Source of the DNA: an uncultured Synergistota bacterium
GTDB lineage: Bacteria; Synergistota; JAGHAJ01
Length of the DNA: 64,000 nucleotides
NCBI GenBank assembly: GCA_964559865.1
Contig: CAZLJD010000030.1
Span: 125,196 to 189,195 of the forward strand
Direction: 5' to 3'
The translations under genes and the position numbers were made by a program. This document shows, one piece after another, positions 4,173 through 62,719 of the stretch (its first letter is position 1; each line of letters starts with the position of its first letter). A model generated the notes under the pieces. The model did not search any database, was not told the origin of the DNA, and saw nothing but the letters and a program-made list of their open reading frames with translations.

Positions 4173-4501
4173 TCTTCTATGCTGCATCGCTGGCACTCGT
4201 TGCCATAGGTATATATGTGGTCATTTCGAAGAGAAATCTCATCAAGATCATCATAGGGCTCGATATGATAGATACGGGTGTGAACCTCCTTTTGATTTCC
4301 ATAGGATATGTCCGTGGGGGAACGGCACCTATAGAAAATGGTAACTATCCGCTTTATGTGGATCCAATCCCTCACGCATTGGTTCTTACTGCTATAGTAA
4401 TAGGGGTTTCCGTTATGGCTCTCGCCCTTTCTATAGTGATAGGTCTTTATAGACATACTGGTACGCTTGAGATAGACGAGATAAGGGGGCTTGTAAAGTG
4501 A
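4169..4501 (+). CDS. Mrp subunit C / NuoK-like (MbxG-type)
   Basis: 110-aa three-helix protein resembling NuoK/MrpC; GTG start overlapping upstream stop. Confidence 0.75.
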   Translation: MIFYAASLALVAIGIYVVISKRNLIKIIIGLDMIDTGVNLLLISIGYVRGGTAPIENGNYPLYVDPIPHALVLTAIVIGVSVMALALSIVIGLYRHTGTLEIDEIRGLVK

Positions 4502-5919
4502 TAAGACCTGTTCTTTTGATCGCTTTGCCGTTGTTCTTTGCGTTTTTGCTGCCAGTTATTGGCTTATGGAACAAGAAGGGCGTTAAGTATGTGACTGTTG
4601 GTGTTATGGGAGTAGAGTTGTTGCTTGCAGTTGCCCTGCTTGATGAGGTCTTGTTGCACCCCGTTATAGATAAGATTGGTGGATTTGTTCCCCCAATAGG
4701 TATAGTGCTTATGGTGGGTAGGCTTGGTGGTTTTCTTACGCTTATAATAGCGCTTTCCGCCTTCGTGATCTCTATATACAACCTCTGGGAGGACAAAGAG
4801 CCTATCGTTAGGTACAACATGCTTTCACTCTTGCTCCTTATGGGTTCCGTTGGGATGGTAATTACAGGTGATATATTTAACCTGTTTGTTTTTCTTGAGA
4901 TTACATCTATAGCCTCTTACGGACTCGCATCCTATAATCGTGATGCAAGGGGTTTTTCTGGAGCAATAAAGTATGTAGTACTTGGTTCTATAGGCAGTAG
5001 TTTTGTTCTGATAGGTATAGCGTTGATATATGCCCAGTTGAGGACACTTAACATGCTCGACATAGCGCACAGGATAGGAGAGATGGACCCTTATGTTAGG
5101 CTGATTGCTTTTACATCTCTGTTCCTCGGTTTTGGAGTGGAAGCGGAGATGTTTCCTTTAAACACATGGGTACCAGGTGTTTATGATGGAGCACCCAACG
5201 CCGTTGTAAGTATGTTTGCTTCCATGCCTGCAAAATCTTCTATTTTTGCACTTGCAAGGATGATGTTTACCGTTTTTTCCTTTAGTGGCTTTATGTGGTT
5301 TGTTGCAATCTTGGGGCTTATTACCGTTTTCTTCGGCGAGATGGTGGCATTTGCACAGGATAAGCTGAAGAAGATGCTTGCCTATTCTTCCATAGGGCAG
5401 ATGGGTATGATCATTATGGGGTTGGGTATAGGCACTGCTATGTCTGTTGAGGGTGCGTTTTTTCAGATGTTTGGGCACGCGCTTGCAAAAGCTTTGCTCT
5501 TCTTGGCAGCTGGGTATATGATCTATGCGGTTAAGAGCGAAAAGATACAGGACATGGTGGGAGTTGCAAAGAATCCTTTGGTGGGCGTGCCGGTAGTTAT
5601 TGCCATACTTTCTCTCCTCGGTATGCCACCATTTGTGGGATTTTACGGTAAGTTTTATATAGTGCTTGGTGGTATCGATGCAAGGGCTTACGGGATTATA
5701 GCGCTGTTTTTGGCCGCTACGATTATAGAGGTTGTGTATTATGCCAGATTTATAAAGGTTGCATTTGCAAAACCCGTTAGGGAGTATGTTTCACCGGAGC
5801 CGGTTGTGTATTTGCCGATGATGGTGTTTGCCATTGTCATAGTGGTTTTTGGTATTTTCCCGGCACCTATCTTTGCTATTTTGAGCAAGGTTTCCATGTT
5901 TATCCTGGGAGGAATATGA
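4498..5919 (+). CDS. antiporter-like subunit, MrpD/NuoN family (MbxH-type)
   Basis: 473-aa polytopic protein with proton-pumping antiporter-type conserved blocks (AYSSIGQMG, HALAKALLF). Confidence 0.85.
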   Translation: MIRPVLLIALPLFFAFLLPVIGLWNKKGVKYVTVGVMGVELLLAVALLDEVLLHPVIDKIGGFVPPIGIVLMVGRLGGFLTLIIALSAFVISIYNLWEDKEPIVRYNMLSLLLLMGSVGMVITGDIFNLFVFLEITSIASYGLASYNRDARGFSGAIKYVVLGSIGSSFVLIGIALIYAQLRTLNMLDIAHRIGEMDPYVRLIAFTSLFLGFGVEAEMFPLNTWVPGVYDGAPNAVVSMFASMPAKSSIFALARMMFTVFSFSGFMWFVAILGLITVFFGEMVAFAQDKLKKMLAYSSIGQMGMIIMGLGIGTAMSVEGAFFQMFGHALAKALLFLAAGYMIYAVKSEKIQDMVGVAKNPLVGVPVVIAILSLLGMPPFVGFYGKFYIVLGGIDARAYGIIALFLAATIIEVVYYARFIKVAFAKPVREYVSPEPVVYLPMMVFAIVIVVFGIFPAPIFAILSKVSMFILGGI

Positions 5920-5920
5920 G

Positions 5921-7735
5921 ATGGGGCATCAGGACTTGTTCTGGCTATTTGTGATTCTTCCGGCATTTGGTGGTATCCTTTCTTTTTTTCTTGAGAGGTA
6001 TGCAGTGGCTGTTGCAACGCTCTTCAGTGGAGTAGTGCTTGCATTTGCTATGTTTGGCTATGGTATGGCTGGGATGGGGGTACTGCATGTTGGGTTTGAG
6101 ATGCACCTTTCCTTGGATGCTGTATCTTGGTTCTTCATGGTAATGATAGACCTCGTTGGGTTTGTTGCTCTTATGTTTTCAATGGAGTTTATTACAGATG
6201 GTAAGGGGAGCTTTTCCTTCTTTATGTTGCTTGCGTTGGCGGGTGCAAACGGCGTCGTAATGTCAAGGGATTTTCTATCCCTGTATATCTTTTGGGAGAT
6301 CATGTCTTGGTCTGTTTTCCTATTGGTGTTGCGGAGCTCTGGGGAGTGGGCTAAAAAATACATCGTTTTTGCCGTAATTTCTGCTGTGCTCTTGCTGATG
6401 GGTATAGGTGTTGTGTACCATTATTCTGGTAGCTTGGTGTATAGTGGTGCGGTGAAGGGGCTGTCTCTGTCTGCGTGGGGTGTTGCATTGTCTCTTCTGA
6501 TTGTTGGCTTTATGGTGAAAATGGCCGTTGTGCCGTTGCATGTGTGGGCACCGTATGCCTATTCTTCTGAACAGACATTTGTTGCGTTCTTGTCTGGGGG
6601 TTTAAGTAAGCTTGGTACATTTGGAGTACTCGTGGTGATGTATATGGCTGCAGGTGTTTCCGTGATGCACGGTTTTGGCGTTTTTAAGAATGTTTCACTG
6701 TTTGGTTATCCTTTTGCTCTGCTCGGTGCAATCACAGCTTTTGTGGGTACTATAGTTGCTGTGTTTCAAGATGACATAAGAAAACTCCTTGCGTATTCCT
6801 CTATTGGGCAACTTGGTTATGTAATGGTTGGTTTGGGACTTGGTATGCCACTTGCCGTTGGGGGGGCGATCTTTCACGCTTTTAACCATGCGATGTTTAA
6901 GTCCGTACTGTTTATGGGGGTAGCGGCGGTCTTCTATAGAGTAAAGACATACAGGATAAGTGAGATGGGCGGTTTGGGTTACAAGATGCCGTTTACATTT
7001 TTGGCGGTGCTTACGGCTATATTTGGTCTTGCTGGCATACCTGTAACATCTGGCTTTATTTCGAAGTGGATGCTTTACGAAGCGGCAATTCAGAACAGAT
7101 TTGTCATAATTGCTCCTCTCATGCTGGTTGCCTCTGTCGGGGCGTTTCTGTATTGCTTCAGAATCCTCTACGGGGTATTCCTGGGTCAGATAGATAGGGG
7201 TAAAGAAGAGGTAAAAGAGGTTGGCGTTTGGATGCTTTTACCGATGTACATCCTTGTTGTACCTCTTTTGCTCTTTGCACTGTTTCCTGGTTGGATACTT
7301 GCTTGGATAAATGACATGTTGGTCTACATGAATGTGGGAAGGTTGAGCTATACTACTTACAGTTTTTCCTCTCTTATAGGTAATGCAGATATGCTACTGT
7401 TTCTTGGTTCGTTCTTCGTTGCGTTTGCTATAGCTGTGGCACTGTTCGTTAAGAGACCTGCAACAAATGTAGACCAGTATGATAATTACCTCTCTGGAGA
7501 GGTAAGGGAGTATGTAAGGTTGCATGCTGCTTATAACTTTTACAAACCCCTGAAGGATGTGTGGGCACCACTCCTCAACAGGAGTATAGATAGAGGGTAC
7601 GATGCCTTTGGGAAGATGCTGGGGGTTGTGTTTGATAGGGTTAAACTCTTTTACACGGGCAATCCTCAGGACTATGCTGCCTATGTTGGTTTAGCGTTTC
7701 TCATATTTGTAGTGGTTGGATGGTGGTTGAGATGA
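5921..7735 (+). CDS. second antiporter-like subunit, NuoL/MrpA family (MbxH'-type)
   Basis: 604-aa polytopic protein with AYSSIGQLGY and HAFNHAMFKS blocks; RBS GGGAGGAA. Confidence 0.85.
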   Translation: MGHQDLFWLFVILPAFGGILSFFLERYAVAVATLFSGVVLAFAMFGYGMAGMGVLHVGFEMHLSLDAVSWFFMVMIDLVGFVALMFSMEFITDGKGSFSFFMLLALAGANGVVMSRDFLSLYIFWEIMSWSVFLLVLRSSGEWAKKYIVFAVISAVLLLMGIGVVYHYSGSLVYSGAVKGLSLSAWGVALSLLIVGFMVKMAVVPLHVWAPYAYSSEQTFVAFLSGGLSKLGTFGVLVVMYMAAGVSVMHGFGVFKNVSLFGYPFALLGAITAFVGTIVAVFQDDIRKLLAYSSIGQLGYVMVGLGLGMPLAVGGAIFHAFNHAMFKSVLFMGVAAVFYRVKTYRISEMGGLGYKMPFTFLAVLTAIFGLAGIPVTSGFISKWMLYEAAIQNRFVIIAPLMLVASVGAFLYCFRILYGVFLGQIDRGKEEVKEVGVWMLLPMYILVVPLLLFALFPGWILAWINDMLVYMNVGRLSYTTYSFSSLIGNADMLLFLGSFFVAFAIAVALFVKRPATNVDQYDNYLSGEVREYVRLHAAYNFYKPLKDVWAPLLNRSIDRGYDAFGKMLGVVFDRVKLFYTGNPQDYAAYVGLAFLIFVVVGWWLR

Positions 7736-8676
7736 CGGTTATGCTGGAGAACTGGCTTGTGTCTGCTTTGTATGTGTTTTTGGCGATATGTGTAGGATTG
7801 CTTTTTGGAGGAATAGCGAGAAAGGTTACTGCACGCATTCAGAACAGGGTAGGGCCACCTGTTTACCAGAACTTCATAGATGTGGGAAAACTCCTTACAA
7901 AGAAGTCAAACATCAGACACAATTGGATATTTGACTTTGCACCGGTATTTGCCCTGTCAGGGGTAATTATGATACTTCTCTACCTGCCTATGGGTGGTTA
8001 TAGGATGTTTGCCTCTAAAGGGGACCTTATCCTCCTTATGTATATAATGGTGATACCTGCACTGGGTTTTGCGCTTGGTGCTGGTGCAAGCATGAATCCT
8101 AATGCTGGCGTGGGCGTTATGAGGGCATTAACCCTTATGCTCTCTTACGAGATGCCCTTTGTTATAGTGTTACTTTCTGTTATGATATACTACGACACAG
8201 CTTCGCTTACCACCCTTCTTGGAAAGCAGTTTTCCGTGGGGTGGGCTATAGTTGCTCTCCCTATATCGGCAGTTGCGGCTGACATGGCTTTGCAGGGAAT
8301 GATGATGGAAAAGCCGTTTGATATACCGATTGCACCCCACGAGATAGCGTCCGGTCCGTTGGTGGAGTTTGGCGGCAAGTACCTTGGAATGTTGATGCTA
8401 TATTCGGCGGGCGGCATCGTGGTGGAAACCTCTTTGTTTGTGGATCTGTTTCTTGGTGGTGGAGTGGTTCTGGACCCAGCCGTATATGGATTTTGGGCTT
8501 ATTTGGTAAATTATGTTGTGTGGTTTGCCCTCATACTGGCAGTTTGGTTGATAGCGGTGTTTGTGAACGCTGTGTTTCCGAGGTTCAGGATAGAGCAGGC
8601 GTTTAAGTTCTACTGGAAGTGGCCAACGGTTATAGCTATACTGGGATTGGTTCAGGCATACTTTTTGAAGGGATGA
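7720..8676 (+). CDS. NuoH/HycD-like membrane subunit (MbxM-type)
   Basis: 318 aa, RKVTARIQNRVGPP motif typical of NuoH-family subunits. Confidence 0.85.
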   Translation: MVVEMTVMLENWLVSALYVFLAICVGLLFGGIARKVTARIQNRVGPPVYQNFIDVGKLLTKKSNIRHNWIFDFAPVFALSGVIMILLYLPMGGYRMFASKGDLILLMYIMVIPALGFALGAGASMNPNAGVGVMRALTLMLSYEMPFVIVLLSVMIYYDTASLTTLLGKQFSVGWAIVALPISAVAADMALQGMMMEKPFDIPIAPHEIASGPLVEFGGKYLGMLMLYSAGGIVVETSLFVDLFLGGGVVLDPAVYGFWAYLVNYVVWFALILAVWLIAVFVNAVFPRFRIEQAFKFYWKWPTVIAILGLVQAYFLKG

Positions 8677-8677
8677 G

Positions 8678-9208
8678 TTGTCTATGTCTAAGGAAATGAG
8701 TTACAGGGATTGGACAGAGGTAGAGAGGCTTCTTTCCAGGAGGTCCTTGTGGATAATACACTTCTGTACTGGATGTGGGGCAATGGAGATGCCCGCTATC
8801 ATGACCTCCCGTTACGATATGGAGAGGTTTGGTATAATGCCCATGGCGACTCCGAGGCAAGCAGACATCATGCTTGTTACCGGTTATGTGGCTGTTAAAA
8901 CTTTGAAGAGGATAGTTCGTGTCTATGAGCAGATGCAGGATCCGAAATATGTTGTTGCGTTTGGTTCGTGTCCTATAAATGGCGGTTTGTATTGGGATTC
9001 CTATAATACGATAAAGCAACTCGATAAGTACATACCCGTAGATATCTACATAGCAGGCTGTATGCCAAGGCCGGAGGCTATCATGGATGCACTTCTGAAG
9101 CTTATGGATATGATAGACAGGGGTGAAGCGGACGGGTGGCGGAGGTATAAGGAGCAGTTTGAGGTTTACAAGGCGAATCAGAACAGGGTTTTTAAGAGGT
9201 GGGATTGA
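8678..9208 (+). CDS. NuoB-like small subunit with [4Fe-4S] cluster (MbxJ-type)
   Basis: Four conserved Cys (CTGCG ... GSCP ... AGCMPRPE) in NuoB/hydrogenase small-subunit arrangement. Confidence 0.9.
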   Translation: MSMSKEMSYRDWTEVERLLSRRSLWIIHFCTGCGAMEMPAIMTSRYDMERFGIMPMATPRQADIMLVTGYVAVKTLKRIVRVYEQMQDPKYVVAFGSCPINGGLYWDSYNTIKQLDKYIPVDIYIAGCMPRPEAIMDALLKLMDMIDRGEADGWRRYKEQFEVYKANQNRVFKRWD

Positions 9209-9687
9209 TGGAGACTTTTGGGATAGATTTCAAGGAGCTTCCCGTTAAGGGCAATACAAGAAAGCGGCTTTATGGCAGTGTGGAACTTGATAGGATAAAG
9301 GAACACATTAGAAAGTTCAAAGAGGTAGGTTTTAATCACCTTGTTGCGATAAGCTGTATAGATTGGATAGACGATGGAAAGTTTGAGGTGGTTTATCATT
9401 TGTGGAGCTACGAGGAGTTGGTAGATATATTCCTTTCGGTGATGATAGATAGAGATAACCCCAGCCTTCAGAGTGTAAAGGAGCTTTTCCCTCAGGCTGA
9501 GACTTACGAAAGAGAGATGCACGAGATGTTTGGCGTATATTTTGATGGCAACGATAGGTTAACGGAGTTTATCCTTGAAGACTGGGATGGTCCTCCGCCT
9601 ATGCGCAAGGACTTTGACACTAAGAAGTATGCTGAGGAGCGTTTCTATTCTGTACCTCCGGTAGGTGATGTAGATGAAGGAGTATGA
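9208..9687 (+). CDS. NuoC-like subunit (MbxK-type)
   Basis: ~160 aa with NuoC-family blocks (ETYEREMHEMFGVYFDGN); ATG overlaps upstream stop (TGATG). Confidence 0.8.
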   Translation: METFGIDFKELPVKGNTRKRLYGSVELDRIKEHIRKFKEVGFNHLVAISCIDWIDDGKFEVVYHLWSYEELVDIFLSVMIDRDNPSLQSVKELFPQAETYEREMHEMFGVYFDGNDRLTEFILEDWDGPPPMRKDFDTKKYAEERFYSVPPVGDVDEGV

Positions 9688-10804
9688 GCTTTTCATAGGA
9701 CCTCAACATGTTGGTATTACGGGAAACTTTATGGTTCACCTCACATTAGAAGGAGATACAGTAGTAAGTGCGGAGGCACACCCTGGTTATCTTCACCGAG
9801 GTTTCGAAAAACTCATGGAGAGAAGAGATTGGTCCATGAATGTTGCACTTATACCAAGGATATGTGTTCCGGAACCAGATGTCAATGAGGCTGCTTATGC
9901 GATGGCAGTTGAGAGCCTGATGGGGTGGGATATTCCAGAGAGGGCTAAATACATAAGGACAATAGTGCTTGAGCTTGCAAGGATATCTGCATATCTGCTT
10001 GCGATAGGTGGATATGCAGGCACGATAGGTTTGTATACTGCACCACAGTGGATGATGGGGGACAGAGATTACATTCTTGACCTGTTTGAGGAGCTGACTG
10101 GTGCACGAGTGTATCACATATTTATATTTCCTGGGGGTGTGAGGTGGGATATCCCAGATGGCTTCGAGGAACGGGTGAAGAAGGTCATGGACTATCTTGA
10201 AAGCAGACTCCAGCTCTATGATGAGCTACTCTTCAAAAACGAGGTGTTCTTCAGAAGGGCGCCTAATATAGGTGTTATTCCAAAGGATAAGGCTGTGGAA
10301 TGGGGGGTTACTGGGCCTAATCTTCGTGCATGTGGCTATGACTACGATGTCAGGAGGCTTGACCCGTACGCTGCTTACGAAGAGATGGATTTTGATGTGA
10401 TCTCCTACCCTGATAGTGTTAAGGGGTTTGATATCCTTTCTGATGGGTGTGACTGTTATGCAAGGATGGTTGTCAGAAGGGTAGAGTTGCAGGAGAGTAT
10501 AAAGATAATCCGACAGGCTGTGGATAATTTACCTCCGGGTGAAGTAACTCTAAAGAGACCCAATCCCCTTGCCTGGAAAGTACCAAAGGGATATGCGTAT
10601 GCGAGGGTTGAAAGTTCAAAGGGGGAATACGGGTACTTCGTGGTAAGTAACGGTGGTAAGAATCCGTATAGGGTGCATGTGAGGGGACCATCTTATACGC
10701 ACGGCATAAATGTCATTGAGACGATATTGAAAGGTTCAAACATAGCAGATGTTTCTCCCATAATGTTTAGCTTGGATATATGTCCACCTGACATAGAGAG
10801 GTGA
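9674..10804 (+). CDS. NuoD / [NiFe]-hydrogenase large-subunit homologue with incomplete metal-ligand motifs (MbxL/MbsL-type)
   Basis: Group-4 large-subunit-like protein; the N-terminal site reads RICVPE (Cys codon 9863-9865, Glu in place of the second Cys) and the C-terminal site reads DICPPDIER (Cys codon 10781-10783, Asp in place of the second Cys). Confidence 0.85.
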   Translation: MKEYELFIGPQHVGITGNFMVHLTLEGDTVVSAEAHPGYLHRGFEKLMERRDWSMNVALIPRICVPEPDVNEAAYAMAVESLMGWDIPERAKYIRTIVLELARISAYLLAIGGYAGTIGLYTAPQWMMGDRDYILDLFEELTGARVYHIFIFPGGVRWDIPDGFEERVKKVMDYLESRLQLYDELLFKNEVFFRRAPNIGVIPKDKAVEWGVTGPNLRACGYDYDVRRLDPYAAYEEMDFDVISYPDSVKGFDILSDGCDCYARMVVRRVELQESIKIIRQAVDNLPPGEVTLKRPNPLAWKVPKGYAYARVESSKGEYGYFVVSNGGKNPYRVHVRGPSYTHGINVIETILKGSNIADVSPIMFSLDICPPDIER

Positions 10805-10805
10805 T

Positions 10806-11267
10806 GTGATGAGTATAGTCAAGCCTTTTAAGGCGTTGCAGCACCTGTTTAAGAAACCACACACGGTTAGGATCCCTTATCAGGAGCATACAGACATAAC
10901 AGGTTTGCCTGTACCTACCGAGAGGTATAGAGGCTTTCACTCCAATGACATACAGAAGTGTATAGGGTGTCAGTTGTGCGGTAGGGTATGCCCTGCAAAT
11001 GCGATTACGTATGAAAAGTTCGAAAATGTGGAGAGCAAAATAAAGCTCAGACCGGTTGTGGACTATGGCCGGTGCTGTTACTGTGGTTTTTGCGTAGATG
11101 TGTGCCCTACAAAGTCTTTGAAACTTACACCCCGATACGAACTGGTATCTCCTAATATAAAGGACTTCAAGTTTATACCCACGGCTGAGATTGCGGGCAA
11201 GGATGATAAAGCAATCTCCATGTCGGAGGTGTTGTTCTCCCCGAAAGATTATAAACCTTCGGAATAG
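10806..11267 (+). CDS. NuoI-like 2x[4Fe-4S] ferredoxin subunit (MbxN-type)
   Basis: Two CxxCxxCxxxCP motifs (CIGCQLCGRVCP, CCYCGFCVDVCP). Confidence 0.85.
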   Translation: MMSIVKPFKALQHLFKKPHTVRIPYQEHTDITGLPVPTERYRGFHSNDIQKCIGCQLCGRVCPANAITYEKFENVESKIKLRPVVDYGRCCYCGFCVDVCPTKSLKLTPRYELVSPNIKDFKFIPTAEIAGKDDKAISMSEVLFSPKDYKPSE

Positions 11268-11305: not shown

Positions 11306-14116
11306 ATGAGAAAGAGAATAGCTGTACTTGTTGTTTCCATGCTGGCTATTATGGTGTCTATTATCTACTTTGTGGATAGGTGGGTGCTCATAGATTACAT
11401 AAGCTCCCAGCTGTCTACCTCATTTCGTCAGAGGCTCTCCGGCATAAGACAGCTCGTGGATGGTGGGGTAACTGCGAGTAAGCTTGTTAGAGAGTACAGA
11501 GGATATGTCACCAATCTGGTATTGGAGGATGACCTTCAGAGGGTAAAGGCATTCTTGCAGATGTGTGATTCGTGGTCGAAGGCAGGTATACTGAGTGAGG
11601 ATGATGCAAAAAGGCTTGCGCTGAGCTACTTAAAGTCGGTTGGTGCCTATGTGTTGAACTCTTCGGGTAAAGCGCTCGTTTTCCCTGTCTACATTGAGAA
11701 GTTTTCCAAGAGTTCCGGAAGGCATGTGGGTTGGAGGAGGTTTGCTCCCTGGGGCTGGAAGATAGGAATGGTAATGAGTGAGAGGGATATCTTTGGTGTG
11801 CAGTATGGAGGCTTTGAGAAGCGGATAAAGAGTGCTGTCTTGAAGAGGATTAGTTACATGCCCTCTAATGGATCTTATGTGGTGGTATACAACAGGCGTG
11901 GCAGGATCATATCCTATCCTCACAGAAAGGTTTCTGCGGATGACCTACCAAGTTCTCCTTATGTGAAGAAGGTGTTTTCGCTTAAGAGTGGTAGTTTTAC
12001 CTATTCTTTTAACGGTAAGAGAAAAGAGAGGGTGTTCTCTTATGTGCCACTTATTGGGTGGTACATAGTCTTTACTGCTTACCCTGATGAGATGTGTTAT
12101 CCGATGCTTGTGAATATGCTGAAAGGGGAACTACCGACTGTTGTGGTTATATTGGTGTTATTAGGAGCCCTTGGGTTGTACGCGTGGAACAAATGTGTGC
12201 TCCTTCCACTTACGCAGGTAACGACAGGATTTGAGGAGCTTGGCAAGGGAAACTACAACTACAAGTTAGACCCCGATACCATAAGATACCCTTATATGAA
12301 AAGCCTTTTTAAGGACTTTAACTATATGATAGAAAAGCTCAAAGAGGGAGAAGAGGAACTCGTCAGGGCTTACAGGAAGTTAGAGGTGCTCAATGCAAGT
12401 ATATCACGCAGATATGAGGACCTCCAAAGGGAGCTTGAAAGGTTAAGGGTTTTGGACGCAATAATATCTGCCACGATCGGACTTGTGGATCACAAGGAGA
12501 TAGCTGCCCGTGTTGTAGATACGCTGGCTTCTACTGGGAGGTATAGTGATATAGGTATCCTGCTGAAGGAGGGAGATCTCCTTAAACGACTTGCGCATCA
12601 CGGTATAGTGTGGAGTAAGTTTGAGCAGTTTCCCATTAATAGTGGAGTGACCGGATGGGCGGTTAGGGATAAGGAGATAAAAAATGTTCCCAATGTTTTG
12701 GCTGAGAGTCACTATGTTGAAGGGAATGCCGCTGTCCGTTCTGAGCTTGCGTGTCCTATAGTCCTTGGTACAGATGTCGTGGGTGTGGTGGATGTGGAGA
12801 GTATGGAACCCTCTTACTTCGTTAGGGATGATGAGCTTATGCTTAGGATGGTGAGTGACTACCTTGCGATGGTCTTCCGGAGGGCTGACTCTGTGAAGTT
12901 GCTTCAGAGAAGACTTAAAGATATGGGCTTTTTACTGCGTCTGCTTAGGAGCGTCTCTAAGACGGAGCACATAGGTGAGCTGTCGAAACAGGTATGCGAG
13001 ATGGTGCAGGAGTATGGTGATTACAATAATGTGACGATGTACATTAGGGACGGGAATTTGCTGGTTTTAACCTATATTGCCGGTTTGCCCATACCTGAAG
13101 ATGTGTATAAGGTAGATTGGGGGATAATCAGTATCTATGGGAAAGGGATATCTGCCAGGGCGGCAAGGACTGCGGAGATGCAGAATGTTCCGAACTGCCT
13201 TGAGGACCCTGATTATCTGGTGGGGGATCGCACCACCAAGAGTGAGCTTGCCGTTCCAGTAAAAGTGGGAAATGAGGTTTTTGCGGTATTGGACTTAGAG
13301 TCAAACGAGTTCAATGCGTTTGGTAAGGAGGATGAGAGGCTGCTTTACCTGATTGCTGAGAACCTTGGGGCAATAATTCGGAGGGTGGAACTGGTGGAGG
13401 GGCTTGAAAGCACCGTTAAGGCACTGGAGGAGAGGAATAAGGAGCTCACACTCAAAGATGAGGAGCTGGAAGTTTCTGTTGAACAGCTTAGGGCCTATAC
13501 TCGGGAGCTTGAGAGCGTTCATCGTGATATGGTACAAAAGGAGACGGAACTTGAGGAAGCGTACTTGGATACCATAAAGGCTCTGGCAAGGGCTATAGAG
13601 ATGAAGGATCCATATGCGAGGGGACACACTACGAAGGTGGCAAGCTATGCGTTGAAGGTGGGGGAGGCTCTAGGACTAAGTGAAGAGGATATGAGGAATC
13701 TCTTGTATGCAGCGATCCTTCACGATATAGGCAGGATAGGACTTAAAGGGGCTGTTCTCGACAAACCTCATGAACTCACAGAAAAGGAAATAGAGTATAT
13801 AAAGGGGTATCCTGCAAGAGGTGCAAGTGTGCTAATGCAGATAGACTACCTTAGAGATGTGGCAAATGTGGTTTTGCACCACCAGGAGAGATGGGATGGT
13901 AGTGGCTATCCTGCAGGTTTAAAGGGAGAAGAGATACCGCTTTTGAGTAGGATTATAGCAGTCGTTGATGCCTATGATGCCATGATCTCTGATAGACCTT
14001 ACAGAAAGGCACTCTCAAAGGAAGAGGCGTTGAGGAGGATAAAGGAGTCTGCGGGGACGCAGTTTGACCCGAGGATTGTGGATGTCTTTTTGAAAGTTGT
14101 AGGGGAAGAGGAGTAA
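11306..14116 (+). CDS. membrane sensor with periplasmic domain, two GAF domains and C-terminal HD-GYP c-di-GMP phosphodiesterase domain
   Basis: Two TM segments flanking a ~250-aa extracytoplasmic region, coiled coils, GAF-like regions, then HD-GYP (LHDIGRIG ... HHQERWDGSGYPAGL). Confidence 0.85.
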   Translation: MRKRIAVLVVSMLAIMVSIIYFVDRWVLIDYISSQLSTSFRQRLSGIRQLVDGGVTASKLVREYRGYVTNLVLEDDLQRVKAFLQMCDSWSKAGILSEDDAKRLALSYLKSVGAYVLNSSGKALVFPVYIEKFSKSSGRHVGWRRFAPWGWKIGMVMSERDIFGVQYGGFEKRIKSAVLKRISYMPSNGSYVVVYNRRGRIISYPHRKVSADDLPSSPYVKKVFSLKSGSFTYSFNGKRKERVFSYVPLIGWYIVFTAYPDEMCYPMLVNMLKGELPTVVVILVLLGALGLYAWNKCVLLPLTQVTTGFEELGKGNYNYKLDPDTIRYPYMKSLFKDFNYMIEKLKEGEEELVRAYRKLEVLNASISRRYEDLQRELERLRVLDAIISATIGLVDHKEIAARVVDTLASTGRYSDIGILLKEGDLLKRLAHHGIVWSKFEQFPINSGVTGWAVRDKEIKNVPNVLAESHYVEGNAAVRSELACPIVLGTDVVGVVDVESMEPSYFVRDDELMLRMVSDYLAMVFRRADSVKLLQRRLKDMGFLLRLLRSVSKTEHIGELSKQVCEMVQEYGDYNNVTMYIRDGNLLVLTYIAGLPIPEDVYKVDWGIISIYGKGISARAARTAEMQNVPNCLEDPDYLVGDRTTKSELAVPVKVGNEVFAVLDLESNEFNAFGKEDERLLYLIAENLGAIIRRVELVEGLESTVKALEERNKELTLKDEELEVSVEQLRAYTRELESVHRDMVQKETELEEAYLDTIKALARAIEMKDPYARGHTTKVASYALKVGEALGLSEEDMRNLLYAAILHDIGRIGLKGAVLDKPHELTEKEIEYIKGYPARGASVLMQIDYLRDVANVVLHHQERWDGSGYPAGLKGEEIPLLSRIIAVVDAYDAMISDRPYRKALSKEEALRRIKESAGTQFDPRIVDVFLKVVGEEE

Positions 14117-14140
14117 GTAGATGTCGGCAAAAATCCTTGG

Positions 14141-14169
14141 TTGACAATGTGATATTTTTGATGTATTAT
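14141..14169 (+). promoter_or_regulatory. sigma70-like promoter (TTGACA, 17-nt spacer, TATTAT) upstream of tRNA-Lys / trp leader / trpB2
   Basis: TTGACA 14141-14146 and TATTAT 14164-14169 read directly; tRNA starts 13 nt downstream. Confidence 0.55.
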
Positions 14170-14181
14170 ACAGTCGCAGGT

Positions 14182-14257
14182 GGGCCGTTAGCTCAGGAGG
14201 TAGAGCACCGGACTTTTAATCCGGGTGTCGCAGGTTCGAATCCTGCACGGCTCACCA
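14182..14257 (+). tRNA. tRNA-Lys (anticodon TTT)
   Basis: 76-nt cloverleaf folded by hand: acceptor GGGCCGT/ACGGCTC, anticodon stem CCGGA/TCCGG with loop CTTTTAA, T-arm GCAGG-TTCGAAT-CCTGC, encoded CCA. Confidence 0.9.
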
Positions 14258-14282
14258 CTCTTAGATTAGAGGAGGAAGAGAA

Positions 14283-14354
14283 ATGATAAGGCAGAGATGT
14301 TGTTTTCTGTTTGGGATGTTTTGGTGGTGCAGCCAGCATGCTGGCTGCACATGA
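14283..14354 (+). CDS. putative trp leader peptide (23 aa, MIRQRCCFLFGMFWWCSQHAGCT) with tandem Trp codons
   Basis: ATG 14283 preceded by AGAGGAGG; TGG TGG at 14322-14327; stop TGA 14352-14354; sits between tRNA-Lys and a terminator directly upstream of trpB2. Confidence 0.5.
   Translation: MIRQRCCFLFGMFWWCSQHAGCT
14327..14350. repeat. perfect 24-bp palindrome gtgcagccagcatgctggctgcac overlapping the leader Trp codons (candidate pause/anti-antiterminator hairpin)
   Basis: Reverse complement identical to itself; begins at the second base of the second Trp codon. Confidence 0.85.
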
Positions 14355-14392
14355 GGGATAGATAATCCATCTGTAGTGTAGGTAGTCGGCAT

Positions 14393-14430
14393 GCCGGAAT
14401 CCGTAAGTGGGTTCCGGCATTTTTGTTTCT
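14393..14430 (+). terminator. intrinsic terminator / attenuator hairpin followed by a U-tract, immediately upstream of trpB2
   Basis: 10-bp stem gccggaatcc / gggttccggc with 6-nt loop, followed by ATTTTTGTTTCTT; its 5' arm lies in a self-complementary cggcatgccg that can alternatively pair with the palindrome centre (gcatgc). Confidence 0.6.
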
Positions 14431-14458
14431 TACGATAGATTTCGGGAGGTGTAAACTT

Positions 14459-15730
14459 ATGGAGAGAAGGATACATTTGAGTGATAAAGATATGCCTAAG
14501 TTTTGGTACAATGCAAAGGCAGACCTACCGTTTGAGCTCGATCCACCATTGGACCCTGAAACAAAGGAGCCTATGGATCCGGCTAAGCTGGAGGCTATAT
14601 TCCCTAAAAATCTTATAGAGCAAGAGCTTTCTATGGAGCGGGAGATACCCATACCGGAGGAGGTAAGAGAGGCATACAGGGTTTACCGTCCGACCCCTTT
14701 GGTGCGTGCCATTGGCCTTGAGAGGGCTTTGGGTACACCTGCACACATATACTACAAGAATGAGTCCCTCAGCCCCACTGGGAGCCACAAGCTCAATACG
14801 GCGATCGCACAGGCGTATTTTAACAAGGTAGAGGGGATAAAGAAGCTCTCTACGGAAACTGGTGCAGGTCAGTGGGGAAGTGCGTTGGCGTATGCCACAA
14901 GGTTGCTCGGAATGGATGTGATGATATTTATGGTAAAGGTGAGTTTCGAACAGAAGCCGTTGAGGAAGTACATGGTAAACTTCTTTGACGGTACTATTTA
15001 CCCGAGCCCGAGCACGCTTACGGAGAAGGGAAAGTACTTTTTGGACAAGGATCCGGAGACTACGGGTAGCCTTGGTATGGCTATAAGTGAGGCCGTAGAG
15101 TTTGCCTTTAAGAATAATGGCGTTAAGTATTCCCTTGGGAGTGTGCTTGATCATGTCTTGCTGCACCAGACCGTCATAGGTTTGGAAACCAGGAAGCAAT
15201 TTGAGATTGTTGGGGAGAGCCCTGATGTGCTTATAGGTTGTTTTGGTGGCGGCTCCAACTTCGGTGGGTTTGTGCTCCCCTTTTTACCAGAGAGGTTGAA
15301 AGGTAGTGCACCGGAGATGATTGCCTGCGAACCCGTTGCTTGCCCTTCACTGACGAAGGGGGAATACCGATACGATTACGGCGATTCAGCAGGGTTGACC
15401 CCATTGCTTAAGATGTACACTCTTGGTAAGGACTTCGTTCCGCCCCCGATCCATGCAGGTGGTCTTAGATACCATGGGGCTGCGCCTTTGATAAGTAGGC
15501 TTGTCAAAGAGGGTATTATAGGTGCTGTGGCTATCTCGCAGGAAGAAGCATTCCAGGCGGCAAAGCTCTTTGGTCGTGTAGAGGGGATAATCCCTGCACC
15601 TGAAACGAGCCATGCAATAGCCTGTGCAATAAGGTATGCAAAGTTGGCAAAAGAAACCGGCGAAAAGAAAGTTATAGCGTTTAACTTCAGTGGCCACGGC
15701 TTGCTTGACCTGACAGCCTATATTAGGTAA
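14459..15730 (+). CDS. trpB: tryptophan synthase beta chain-like PLP enzyme (TrpB2 type)
   Basis: [23 protein letters not shown]-terminus and PLP-enzyme blocks ([25 protein letters not shown]); ATG 14459 preceded by GGGAGGTG (track ORF starts earlier at 14423). Confidence 0.85.
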
Positions 15731-15742
15731 CCTGATTTCAAG

Positions 15743-15772
15743 GAGGGAGAGATAGCTAATGATCTCTCCCTC
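15743..15772 (+). terminator. possible terminator hairpin after trpB2 (11-bp stem, weak U-tract)
   Basis: gagggagagat / atctctccctc inverted repeat, 8-nt loop; downstream T-run is weak. Confidence 0.35.
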
Positions 15773-15888
15773 TATCGTGCGCTGTTTGAGATACTAACAG
15801 TATGAAAAATACCCTTCCAAAGTGTAACGGAATAGTATAAAATATTGCATATTGATAATTAGGGATAGATGGGGGATGTTCTTCGGTT

Positions 15889-16968
15889 TTGAGGTACACT
15901 TTCCGATCACCTGGTAGAATCAACCTTATAGGGGAACACACTGACTACAATGGGGGGTATGTCTTTCCCGCAGCAATAGATAGATATACATACCTAACAT
16001 TTGAGGATTCGGACAAATTTGAAGTCTATGCCAAGCACTTTGACCAGAGGGTAGGGTTTTCTCTGGATGAGAGTGGAGTGGAAGTGGAGTGGGTGAACTA
16101 TGTAAAGGGTGCGGTATTGTATGTGGCTCGTGCTATGGGGAGGGAGATAGAGCCGTTGAGCATTACTATAGATGGTGACCTTCCTCTGGGTGCAGGACTT
16201 TCCAGTTCAGCCTCTCTGCTGGTAGGTGTGATGTACGGTGTGTCTGTAGTTAGGGGTGCGGGTTTATCCAGAAGGGAGATTGCCAAGCTTGCCCATGAGG
16301 TCGAGAACGATTTTGTGGGTGTAAACTGCGGTGTGATGGATCAGCTCGCCGTGGCGATGGGAAAGAAAGATGCATTCATGTTAATTGATACTCTTCGTGG
16401 ATCTATAGAGTACATAAAGACTGACCACTTTCCTGTGATTACAGTAGTGGACTCGGGAGTGAGGCACAGGCTGCTTTCTGGCGGCTACAACGATAGAAGA
16501 TTTGAGTGTAAGGAAGCAGAGAGGATAGTTGGGGTTCCTTTTAGGGAGATGACTCTGGAGATTATTGGTGCCAAAAGGGGGGGGTTGGGAGAGGTTCTTT
16601 ATAGGCGTGCGAGACATGTGATTGAGGAGAACGAGAGGGTGCTTCGGGCAGTTGAGACTATTAGGGCACGTAACTGGAGAGAACTGGGGAGCCTGCTTTA
16701 TGCTTCTCACGACAGCTTGAAGAACCTTTTTGAGGTTTCAATCCCGGAGATCGACTATATAGTGGATTTGCTCAAGTGTATAGAGCATGTTTACGGTGCA
16801 AGAATAATGGGAGGAGGATTTGGGGGTAGTGTGCTTGTGATCTCTGAGAAGGTTTTGGATGAGGAACTGGTGTGGCTAAAAGGCAAATATATGGATAGGT
16901 TTGGCATAGAATTGCACGGCTACTCGGTTGGCATATCCGATGGAGTCAAAGAGATCAAGCAGATATAA
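15889..16968 (+). CDS. galK: galactokinase (GHMP kinase)
   Basis: PGRINLIGEHTDYNGG signature near N-terminus and GHMP kinase motif PLGAGLSSSASL; TTG start. Confidence 0.9.
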   Translation: MRYTFRSPGRINLIGEHTDYNGGYVFPAAIDRYTYLTFEDSDKFEVYAKHFDQRVGFSLDESGVEVEWVNYVKGAVLYVARAMGREIEPLSITIDGDLPLGAGLSSSASLLVGVMYGVSVVRGAGLSRREIAKLAHEVENDFVGVNCGVMDQLAVAMGKKDAFMLIDTLRGSIEYIKTDHFPVITVVDSGVRHRLLSGGYNDRRFECKEAERIVGVPFREMTLEIIGAKRGGLGEVLYRRARHVIEENERVLRAVETIRARNWRELGSLLYASHDSLKNLFEVSIPEIDYIVDLLKCIEHVYGARIMGGGFGGSVLVISEKVLDEELVWLKGKYMDRFGIELHGYSVGISDGVKEIKQI

Positions 16969-51589: not shown

Positions 51590-51665
51590 GCTCTCATCGT
51601 CTAGCGGCCAAGGACACTGCCCTTTCAAGGCAGCGGCGGGGGTTCGAATCCCCCTGGGAGCGCCA
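51590..51665 (+). tRNA. tRNA-Glu (anticodon TTC)
   Basis: 76-nt cloverleaf folded by hand: acceptor GCTCTCA/TGGGAGC, anticodon stem CTGCC/GGCAG with loop CTTTCAA, T-arm GGGGG-TTCGAAT-CCCCC, encoded CCA. Confidence 0.9.
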
Positions 51666-51669
51666 AGGG

Positions 51670-51745
51670 GCCGGTGTAGCTCAACTGGTAGAGCAGCGGA
51701 ATCGTAATCCGCGGGTTGTCCGTTCGAGTCGGATCACCGGCTCCA
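51670..51745 (+). tRNA. tRNA-Thr (anticodon CGT)
   Basis: 76-nt cloverleaf: acceptor GCCGGTG/CACCGGC, D-arm GCTC-AACTGGTA-GAGC, anticodon stem GCGGA/TCCGC with loop ATCGTAA, T-loop TTCGAGT, encoded CCA. Confidence 0.9.
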
Positions 51746-60244: not shown

Positions 60245-62719
60245 ATGATAGAGTACAATTTTAGGGAGATCGAAGAGAAGTGGCAGAGGTACTGGGAAGA
60301 GAATAAAACTTTCAGGGTGGAAAGGGACCCAAACAAAAAGAAGTACTATGTCCTTGAGATGTTTCCCTATCCTTCTGGTAAGCTTCACATTGGGCACTTG
60401 AGGAACTATTCCATAGGTGATGTGGTTGCCCGCTACAAGAGGATGAGGGGTTTTAATGTGTTGCATCCTATGGGGTGGGATGCGTTTGGTTTGCCTGCTG
60501 AGAATGCAGCGATAAAGATGAAGGTGCACCCGGCAAGCTGGACATATGGCAACATCGAGAACATGAGGAAGCAGCTGAAAGAGATAGGTGCAAGCTACGA
60601 TTGGGATAGAGAGGTTGCCACCTGTGATCCTGATTACTACAAGTGGACTGAATGGATGTTCTTGCAGTTTTACAAGGCAGGTCTTGCCTACAAGGCGGAA
60701 GCGCTTGTCAACTGGTGTCCTAAGTGCAAGACTGTGCTTGCTAATGAACAGGTGGAGCAGGGGAGGTGTTGGAGGTGCGGTAGCGTGGTTCAGAAGAAGA
60801 AGCTGGAGCAGTGGTTTCTGAAGATAACGGACTACGCAGAGGAGCTGCTCTCCGACATCGAGAAGCTTGAGGGTTGGCCCGAGAGGGTAAAGCTGATGCA
60901 GAAGAACTGGATAGGTAAGAGTGAAGGGGTGGAGGTAGACTTCGAGGTGGAGGGACTGGACGAAGTTATGCCGATCTTTACGACGAGGATAGATACGATA
61001 TTTGGTGTAACATTTATGGCACTTGCGCCGGAGCATCCACTTGTAGACAAGATTATATCTTTGAGCAGTAATGGAGATGAGATTAGGAACTTTGTTGATG
61101 AAGTGTTGAGGCAGGATCAAAGCTATAGGTCTGACATATCCACGGAGAAAGAGGGGATCTTTACAGGGTATTACGCCGTGAACCCGGTGAACGGGGAGAG
61201 AATACCTGTATGGGTTGCAAATTATATCCTAATGGAGTATGGGACTGGAGCTATCATGGGTGTGCCCGCTCACGATGAGAGGGACTTCGAGTTTGCTAAA
61301 AAGTATAACCTTCCTATTAGAGTGGTTATATCCCCGGATGGTAGTGCAAACCCCCATCTCGAAGAAGCCTACACCGGAGATGGGATACAGGTCAATTCTG
61401 GTGAGTTTGACGGTTTATCCTGCAAAGAGGCAAAGGAGAAGATAGCGGATTGGGTTGAAAGACAGGGCATTGGCAGGAGGAAGGTAAACTACAAGTTAAG
61501 GGATTGGCTCATATCCCGTCAGAGGTATTGGGGAGCACCTATCCCGATTGTTTACTGCCAAAAGTGTGGGATCGTGCCTGTCCCGGAAGATCGGCTTCCT
61601 GTTATACTACCTTTGGACCTGCAGATAGGGGAGGACGGGAGCTCGCCGCTTCCTAAGAGCAAAGAGTTTGTCGAGGCGAGATGCCCTGTATGTGGTGGTC
61701 CTGCTAAAAGGGAGACGGATACGATGGATACATTTATATGCTCTTCTTGGTACTTTGACAGGTTTACGAGCCCGAGATCTGATGATAAGCCGTTCGAGAA
61801 GGATGACATAGAGTATTGGATGCCGGTCGACCAGTATATAGGTGGTGTCGAACATGCGGTATTGCACCTTCTTTACTCACGCTTTTTCACGAAGTTTTTG
61901 GCAGATAGAGGTTTGTTTGAGTTTAGAGAGCCATTCAAGAATCTGCTTACGCAGGGCATGGTGATAAAAGATGGAGCGAAGATGTCTAAATCTCTGGGCA
62001 ACATTGTGGACCCAGATGATATCATAAAAAAGTATGGTGCAGACACTGCGAGATTGTTTATTCTGTTTACATCTCCCCCTGAGAGAGATCTCGAATGGAG
62101 CGACCAAGGTGTGGAGGGTGCTCACAGGTTTCTTAAGAGGGTCTGGAGATTGTATCAGCTTCTGATACCGAAACTGCCCCGGAAATCCTTTGAGGTAATA
62201 GATGTTGACGATATAAAGAGCAAGGAAACCAGAAGACTCAAGAGATTTCTCCACTATACGATAAAGCGTGTCACTATAGATATAGACAAGAGAATGCACT
62301 TTAATACTGCCATAAGTGCTCTTATGGAACTCACCAACGAGCTTTACAAGTTTAAACCCCAGACGGAGGAGGACTGGATGGTCGTGAACGAGGCACTTAA
62401 TGCGATGGTGTTGATGTTCCACCCGTTTGTGCCTCACATTGCAGAGGAGCTTTGGAGTCTGCTTGGAAATGACTCTACTCTGGCTTACGAGCCGTGGCCT
62501 CAGTGGGATGAGAAGGCGGCTACATTCGAGGAGGTTACCGTAGTAGTGCAGATAAATGGTAAGGTGAGATCCCAGTTTGATGCACCTCGTGGACTCTCTA
62601 AGGAAGAGCTAAAGGAGATGGCACTTTCGAGCGATGCAGTTCGCTCACGGATAGAGGGTAAGGAGATTGTGAAGGTTGTTGTGGTCCCAGATAAGATAGT
62701 GAGTATTGTAGTGAGATGA
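60245..62719 (+). CDS. leuS: leucine--tRNA ligase
   Basis: HIGH-type motif ([15 protein letters not shown]), KMSKS motif, editing domain, Zn-binding Cys pairs. Confidence 0.95.

Follow-up and report, generated by a model that had tools for sequence, protein, structure and literature searches.

How is a stand-alone trpB2 gene controlled that follows, on the same strand, a tRNA-Lys gene, a short open reading frame (ORF) with two adjacent Trp codons and a series of hairpins? This arrangement is found within the first quarter of the window analyzed here, that is, the whole 64,000-nucleotide stretch of contig CAZLJD010000030.1 from an uncultured Synergistota bacterium. A preliminary description made from the sequence had recognized in it the architecture of ribosome-mediated attenuation. 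We consider it highly probable that a ribosome-mediated (leader-peptide) transcription attenuator senses charged tRNA-Trp at this locus and gates transcription into trpB2. This proposal is built on the sequence elements, their conservation, covariation and state-dependent folds, from which we infer co-transcription with the tRNA, the geometry of the ribosome footprint, kinetic competition and the response to Trp. The elements are the following:

14141-14169, + strand: sigma-70-type promoter, TTGACA (14141-14146), 17 nt spacer, TATTAT (14164-14169), 11 of 12 positions matching the consensus
14182-14257, + strand: tRNA-Lys(UUU) gene with encoded CCA, between promoter and leader ORF (ARAGORN; Rfam tRNA, 72.4 bits)
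14268-14275, + strand: leader Shine-Dalgarno (SD) sequence AGAGGAGG, 7 nt before the ATG (read from the sequence)
14283-14354, + strand: leader ORF of 23 codons, MIRQRCCFLFGMFWWCSQHAGCT, ATG at 14283, stop TGA at 14352-14354 (ORF translation)
14322-14327, + strand: two tandem Trp codons TGG TGG, the proposed sensing codons (read from the sequence)
14327-14338, + strand: segment 1, 5' arm of the 1:2 hairpin and first half of the palindrome (pairing search; covariation)
14339-14350, + strand: segment 2, 3' arm of the 1:2 hairpin and, with 14336-14338, 5' strand of the antiterminator (pairing, folds)
14382-14402, + strand: segment 3, of which 14382-14394 pair with 14336-14348 (13-bp antiterminator) and 14391-14402 are the terminator 5' arm
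14409-14431, + strand: segment 4, terminator 3' arm (14409-14420) followed by the U-tract TTTTTGTTTCTT (terminator scan)
14444-14451, + strand: trpB2 SD GGGAGGTG (read from the sequence)
14459-15730, + strand: trpB2, a stand-alone TrpB-like pyridoxal phosphate (PLP) enzyme of 423 amino acids, ATG at 14459, the proposed regulated gene (NF009057)

All elements of the preliminary description were recovered at or within 2 nt of the coordinates it gave. This applies to the consensus-like promoter, the tRNA-Lys gene, on which ARAGORN and Rfam agree, the 23-codon ORF with its adjacent Trp codons and the perfect 24-bp palindrome at 14327-14350. Two details needed correction: the SD is present, the 25 nt said to separate it from the tRNA being the distance to the ATG, and the hairpin with U-tract before trpB2 has 12-13 pairs, not 10. 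This hairpin is an intrinsic terminator between the leader ORF and trpB2, in which 14391-14402 pair with 14409-14420 in 12-13 GC-rich pairs, followed by TTTTTGTTTCT. The proposed pairing of the palindrome centre with the terminator 5' arm was located between 14333-14346 and 14384-14397. As a whole, the leader (14258-14462, 205 nt) folds with a z-score of -4.3, better than 200 of 200 shuffles.

We compared the locus with 16 distinct orthologous trpB2 loci of at least 70% protein identity. Thirteen are Mesoaciditogaceae-type loci (L002-L007, L082, L084/85, L087, L088, L090, L092 and L094) and three are syntenic congeners of the window lineage (L096/97, L098 and L100), which were reached through GalK homologues. 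All 16 carry an SD-preceded short in-frame ORF with tandem Trp codons just before the hairpins and trpB2, in agreement with the attenuation architecture described earlier, and a purine-rich SD is found in every leader. The congeners contain WW, the Mesoaciditogaceae-type loci WWW; examples of leader ends, each running up to the stop codon, are ...NAWWWYDRYFGRT in L003, ...NRWWWSDRCTGRNT in L005 and ...ENWWWYCP in L006, and the complete leader peptide of L096 is MKEGVYRVFWGRFWWCSQHAGCT. From WW to the stop, the window leader is homologous codon for codon to those of its relatives (WWCSQHAGCT versus WWYDRYFGRT), and the TGGTGG columns are invariant in 14/14 aligned leaders. A third TGG in the relatives, their first Trp codon, aligns with TTT in the window, so that the window lineage has lost the first of three Trp codons. 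Within that lineage (window, L096 and L100) the 12 codons before F-W-W have diverged almost fully, with the 23-codon length, frame, SD and stop position kept; a core of 32 nt, TTTTGGTGGTGCAGCCAGCATGCTGGCTGCAC, does not vary. When JGI metagenome contigs were scanned for exact matches to the invariant core TGGTGGTGCAGCCAGCATGCTGGCTGCAC, 0 were obtained.

The pattern of codon conservation also bears on the possibility that trpB2 is coupled to leader translation generally, responding to ribosome availability or stress and not specifically to Trp-tRNA. Any slowing of a ribosome at this position would alter the structure in the same way, and the window leader contains rare Cys codons as well (CC at codons 6-7, C16 and C22). 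Across the 14 aligned sequences, however, only the Trp codons are conserved in position while other codons vary, and the regulated gene makes Trp. We regard a general coupling as hardly likely.

Three helices (1:2, 2:3 and 3:4) follow the Trp ORF in 16/16 orthologous loci, and their covariation was tested on an alignment of 14 leaders. The consensus obtained from this alignment by unguided RNAalifold consists of the 1:2 hairpin and the 3:4 terminator, with 9 pairs changed on both sides. For the 3:4 terminator 93.5% of cells are paired, with 7 double-change pairs; none of 500 shuffles was as good and slid registers reached 30-51%. The 2:3 antiterminator, which was specified by hand (columns 24-36 with 87-99), shows 92.3% paired cells and 5 double-change pairs compared to 27-42% in slid registers, and the 1:2 hairpin 87.5% paired cells and 2 compensatory pairs. 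Compensatory changes in the hairpins of orthologues, which the preliminary description had proposed to look for, are thus present, and they extend to the antiterminator. Where relatives have CCGGUAUUUUGG with CCAAAAUACCGG, the window has CCAGCAUGCUGG with UCGGCAUGCCGG-type pairing, three positions being altered on both strands. L006 and L094, from the 70%-identity group, have different sequences and the same three-helix logic (CCCUGAUGCUGAA with UUCAGCAUCGGGG, AUCGGGGAUCUU with AAGAUCCCCGAU). As a separate observation, the distance from the attenuator terminator to the trpB2 SD is extended in L088 and L090 by some 70-90 nt of additional sequence (L088:2925-2990, L090:2919-2990), which is missing in the other loci and contains a small GC hairpin (GCCGCTAAGCGGC in L088).

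The palindrome could alternatively be a DNA operator bound by a dimeric repressor, for example a Trp-responsive one, instead of or beside attenuation. It is perfect and free of a spacer, it is the sole perfect palindrome of at least 16 bp in the 64 kb window (shuffles yield about 0.8 of at least that length), and all 24 nt are unchanged in three congeners despite divergence of the sequence around it. On the other hand, 11 Mesoaciditogaceae-type homologues keep RNA-level pairing only: the relatives' 1:2 hairpin is imperfect, with 8 bp, an 8-nt loop, G-U pairs and an A-C mismatch in 10/12 sequences. The palindrome also lies about 160 nt downstream of the sole promoter, and a triple duty in coding, 1:2 pairing and 2:3 pairing would explain its invariance equally. 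Judged from these alignments, the perfect palindrome arose by lineage-specific extension of a hairpin whose counterpart in relatives is imperfect, which argues for a role at the RNA level and against a DNA operator. We consider the operator quite improbable.

The preliminary description had further proposed to fold the leader with a ribosome stalled at the Trp codons. We folded it at 37 and 60°C with a ribosome mask from -12 to +15 around the first P-site nucleotide, the footprint size being assumed. At 60°C the free window transcript shows the 1:2 hairpin, with a pairing probability (P) of about 0.9, together with the full terminator. When the first TGG occupies the A site, the 13-bp antiterminator 14336-14348:14382-14394 forms with P between 0.5 and 1.0, and the four basal terminator pairs by the U-tract fall to P = 0.0-0.5 upon a stall at this first Trp codon (W1). 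If the ribosome stands at the stop codon instead, no antiterminator forms and the terminator is complete. The alternative structures are therefore state-dependent as anticipated, with an exclusion that in the window is partial. Since equilibrium folds of complete transcripts give no clean switch, the terminators being more stable, we also folded nascent transcripts ending at the terminator 5' arm. With the ribosome at W1, segment 2 sequesters 4-10 nt of this arm in 14/14 loci; with the ribosome at the stop codon no sequestration was seen in 12/14 loci.

In the proposed mechanism, the single promoter at 14141-14169 would transcribe tRNA-Lys, leader and trpB2 in this order, and a ribosome would load at AGAGGAGG and translate the 23-codon leader. 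With Trp-tRNA plentiful the ribosome would reach the TGA at 14352 and cover segment 2 (14339-14350), leaving segment 3 free to pair with segment 4, and the terminator would stop transcription about 30 nt before trpB2. With Trp-tRNA scarce it would stall with the first TGG (14322) in the A site and cover segment 1, and 14336-14348 would pair with 14382-14394. This antiterminator would remove the AUGC base of the terminator stem by the U-tract, and RNA polymerase would therefore read into trpB2. If the leader is not translated, the very stable 1:2 palindrome hairpin would hold segment 2 and the terminator would form. Trp starvation would induce TrpB2, making Trp from indole and serine or phosphoserine.

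Several points weigh against such an attenuator. The overlap between antiterminator and terminator is smallest in the window, with 4 nt (14391-14394) at W1 and 1-2 nt at the second Trp codon (W2), as compared to 5-10 nt in relatives; since only about 4 nt compete, exclusion is partial in equilibrium folds. The loss of a Trp codon (TGG to TTT) in the window lineage worsens the footprint geometry. The trpB2 of Thermotoga maritima (L095, 66% identity) has no leader, only about 45 nt separating it from a divergent gene, suggesting that the device is restricted to certain lineages and does not reach Thermotogales. Finally, the upper 8-9 bp of the terminator survive all states in equilibrium folds of complete transcripts, and readthrough would therefore depend on the stem base and on kinetics. 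In E. coli trpL the terminator is likewise more stable than the antiterminator and the decision is kinetic.

The persistence of the upper stem would also suit a simpler explanation, in which 14391-14431 is a constitutive terminator of tRNA-Lys, the short ORF arose by chance and expression of trpB2 has another basis; a tRNA gene needs a terminator, and none is found between tRNA and leader. Yet L005, L006 and L094 lack a tRNA gene and still show this ORF with WW(W) together with all three helices. The invariance of TGGTGG, the ORF frame that is kept while flanking codons diverge and the covariation of the antiterminator likewise speak against a fortuitous ORF. In addition, the consensus scan detected no promoter-like site in the 28 nt between terminator and trpB2, a stretch that already includes the SD and has no room for a promoter, and trpB2 therefore appears to depend on readthrough. 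A merely constitutive terminator is scarcely probable on this evidence.

A factor acting in trans on the leader RNA, such as uncharged tRNA-Trp in a T-box, a TRAP-like protein or the ligand of a metabolite riboswitch, would make the leader ORF irrelevant. These are the usual Trp-sensing devices of Firmicutes-like thermophiles, and a few (G/U)AG triplets are found in the 5' leader (UAG, UAG, GAG and GAG at 14262-14280). The triplets are only about four, however, they coincide with the SD and they do not overlap the antiterminator. Rfam cmscan of 14000-14700 gave no cis-regulatory match even at a permissive threshold (E up to 10), including T-box (RF00230) and Trp_leader (RF00513), and the feature conserved across lineages is the in-frame TGG run. 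We judge a trans-acting sensor of this kind extremely improbable. The leftover Rfam matches were dismissed as chance: plastid motifs antisense to the tRNA, ROSE_3 (16 bits versus a gathering threshold of 43, E = 1.1) and snoRNAs with E of about 7-9.

The leader-peptide attenuator would share its transcript with the upstream tRNA gene. Within 13500-16500 the consensus scan yielded 14141-14169 as the sole promoter-like match on the + strand, and the promoters of the congeners L096 and L100 are nearly identical to it. Between tRNA-Lys and leader ORF the + strand scan found neither terminator nor promoter, its only hits being one promoter (14141) and one terminator (14391). Because of this lack of intervening signals, we infer that tRNA-Lys, leader and trpB2 form one transcript from promoter 14141-14169. 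A tRNA-Lys(UUU) occupies the same position in the congeners L096, L097 and L100. In 11 Mesoaciditogaceae-type loci the gene between the leader and its promoter, which is of the TTGACT...TATCAT type, is instead a tRNA-Val(GAC); the leader SD lies 1-4 nt 3' of the CCA end there, as compared to a gap of 10 nt from tRNA to SD in the window. In L005, L006 and L094 the leader follows the promoter directly; the tRNA is therefore not required for the attenuator. From the loci compared, the tRNA association appears to have arisen or been kept with two different tRNAs, Lys and Val. In L088 the promoter and the WWW leader are separated by a decayed tRNA-Val(GAC) pseudogene (L088:2697-2772) with many GC-to-AT changes, in which the cloverleaf is lost and ARAGORN makes no call; leader, attenuator and trpB2 of this locus are intact despite the decay.

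That the tRNA gene is an integral part of the attenuator device and not a passive neighbor seems to us rather doubtful. Since the leader SD lies 1-10 nt past the encoded CCA, excision of the tRNA by RNase P and RNase Z could make the 5' end of the leader mRNA, and translation of the leader or stability of the mRNA would, if this is true, be tied to tRNA processing. Just 3' of the tRNA, at 14258-14271, is a small hairpin (CUCU-N6-AGAG) that pairs with the first bases of the SD AGAGGAGG; it is present in minimum free energy folds and may tune leader translation or tRNA 3' processing. A repeat of the tRNA-Lys 3' end of the att type, which would be a sign of island integration, was not found in the window.

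The identity of the regulated gene, named trpB2 from the outset, is supported by family models. Its product matches NCBIfam NF009057 'TrpB-like PLP-dependent enzyme' with 684 bits (cutoff 366) and TIGR01415 with 654 bits (cutoff 519), whereas canonical TrpB TIGR00263 gives 145 bits, under its cutoff of 392. The closest TrpB2 homologues are 77-80% identical, those with a named source belonging to Mesoaciditoga or Mesoaciditogaceae; at 70-80% identity the sources are Mesoaciditoga lauensis and metagenome-assembled genomes (MAGs) of Mesoaciditogaceae or Thermotogae. The ORFs scanned from about 4.5 to 23.3 kb of the window include no trp gene; the preliminary description had stated that no trpA is nearby. 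TrpB2 is described as an indole-salvaging synthase working without TrpA (Hiyama et al. 2014, as cited in PMC11085991), and a position behind a tRNA-Trp sensor would fit this role.

We also looked at a more distant set of 74 trpB2 loci with 55-63% identity. Convincing WW-containing mini-ORFs are found upstream of trpB2 only in L009 and L038, possibly also in L020; the upstream mini-ORFs of L014, L028 and L080 look fortuitous and were discarded. L009 (3831-3990), from a Deltaproteobacteria MAG (UBA1386), has a promoter and a WWWW mini-ORF (MTNAATNNWWWWRRL) before trpB2, and L038 (2697-2850), from a Syntrophorhabdus MAG, a promoter and a WAWWW mini-ORF (MMKSAAKKDWAWWWLV). Both contain two successive GC-rich hairpins with common GGCCATGG motifs, each followed by a T-run. 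These leaders look like independent Trp attenuators of trpB2, suggesting that the strategy was adopted convergently. The occurrence of W-rich leaders before trpB2 in unrelated lineages fits a functional connection between Trp sensing and TrpB2 in general.

Past the 3' end of trpB2 a further hairpin was noted:

15742-15772, + strand: GC-rich hairpin of 11 bp (GAGGGAGAGAT...ATCTCTCCCTC) with a weak T-tract, 12 nt past the trpB2 stop (read from the sequence)

It was missed by the terminator scan; the trpB2 unit probably ends here, ahead of galK. The scanned neighbors include an Mrp/NADH-dehydrogenase-like cluster, an HD-GYP/GAF protein, galK, a malK-like ATPase and an enoyl-CoA hydratase. The first of these corresponds to an Mrp/complex-I-like membrane module at 4498-11267 (Proton_antipo_M twice, NADHdh, Complex1_49kDa and a ferredoxin-like protein), and a 936-amino-acid GAF-GAF-HD-GYP protein at 11306-14116 ends 25 nt before the promoter. 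Elsewhere in the window, tRNA-Glu(UUC) and tRNA-Thr(CGU) stand in tandem, 4 nt apart, at 51590-51745. The + strand GC skew is very strong and stays at +0.15 to +0.34 in 4-kb bins, until it falls to +0.08 and next to -0.05 between 52 and 60 kb, where the genes turn to the - strand.

Different genes of the window point to different relatives. Leucyl-tRNA synthetase (60245-62719) is closest to MAGs labelled Synergistota (69%), with no Thermotogota among its best 120 matches, whereas TrpB2 (80%) and GalK (54-60%), encoded at 14459-16968, are closest to Mesoaciditoga. This taxonomic conflict could reflect an unclassified deep host lineage or a horizontal transfer of the trpB2(-galK) region. In the latter case the trpB2 cassette may have moved between Thermotogota and a Synergistota-like host as a self-contained regulated module.

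How does the element compare with known systems? It would belong to a well-known class of attenuators and is unusual in its TrpB2 target and its proposed tRNA-fused transcript. It shares with E. coli trpL (RF00513) a short ORF that is preceded by an SD and carries tandem Trp codons, four segments giving 1:2, 2:3 and 3:4 helices and, as predicted here, termination as the default; in both, segment 1 begins at the Trp codons and segment 2 is closely followed by the stop codon. With no homology in sequence or structure detectable by the RF00513 model, it is a mechanistic analogue and not a member of that Rfam family. E. coli trpL controls trpEDCBA, whereas the window element would control a single stand-alone trpB2; a tRNA gene would lead its transcript, the overlap between 2:3 and 3:4 is much smaller, and the host is of a thermophile-type lineage related to Thermotogota/Synergistota. 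A promoter common to a tRNA and a protein gene, with excision of the tRNA, is known from the E. coli operons thrU-tyrU-glyT-thrT-tufB and tyrT-tpr; in these no attenuator is known to lie between tRNA and mRNA, where the window would have one. The TRAP and T-box systems of Bacillus likewise act upstream of trp genes and select terminator or antiterminator in response to Trp, but their sensor is a protein or an uncharged tRNA. The sensor proposed for the window is the translating ribosome, and the signature of neither system is present.

Trp leader-peptide attenuators have been predicted or validated in Actinobacteria, in the Corynebacterium trp operon and before Streptomyces trpE (Seliverstov et al. 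2005, PMC1262725). They are independent non-proteobacterial cases identified by the same comparative logic, and the class is thus phylogenetically scattered; they differ from the window element in phylum, in their unrelated sequences, in having classical trp operon targets and in lacking a tRNA. The 'trpB2A' of C. diphtheriae is a second canonical trpB beside trpA and not a TrpB2-family gene (PMC1262725). In Sinorhizobium meliloti, trpL gives rise to the small RNA rnTrpL and the peptide peTrpL, with demonstrated trans-acting roles (PMC6614838, PMC7298713). The terminated product accumulates there, and a strong constitutive tRNA promoter in the window would by analogy also yield abundant attenuated leader RNA or peptide; these may have a trans role, which for the window element is pure speculation in contrast to S. 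meliloti. A full-text search of the literature found no leader-peptide attenuator described before a TrpB2-family gene or in Thermotogota, its coverage being incomplete and the result an absence of evidence only. Rfam contains no model for the element.

If the proposed mechanism holds, classical leader-peptide attenuation would extend to deep-branching thermophiles, namely Mesoaciditogaceae-type Thermotogota and a related or Synergistota-like lineage. Mesoaciditoga lauensis (locus L082) has been cultured, and the prediction is therefore directly testable. The natural variants with tRNA-Val, tRNA-Lys, a decayed tRNA or none would form a comparative series on whether a tRNA upstream affects the function of the attenuator or the fate of the mRNA. 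For the debated role of TrpB2 in vivo, the device would provide regulatory evidence that Trp is made on demand, most simply by indole salvage, and the W-rich leaders before trpB2 in Deltaproteobacteria-type MAGs suggest that the link between Trp sensing and TrpB2 is general.

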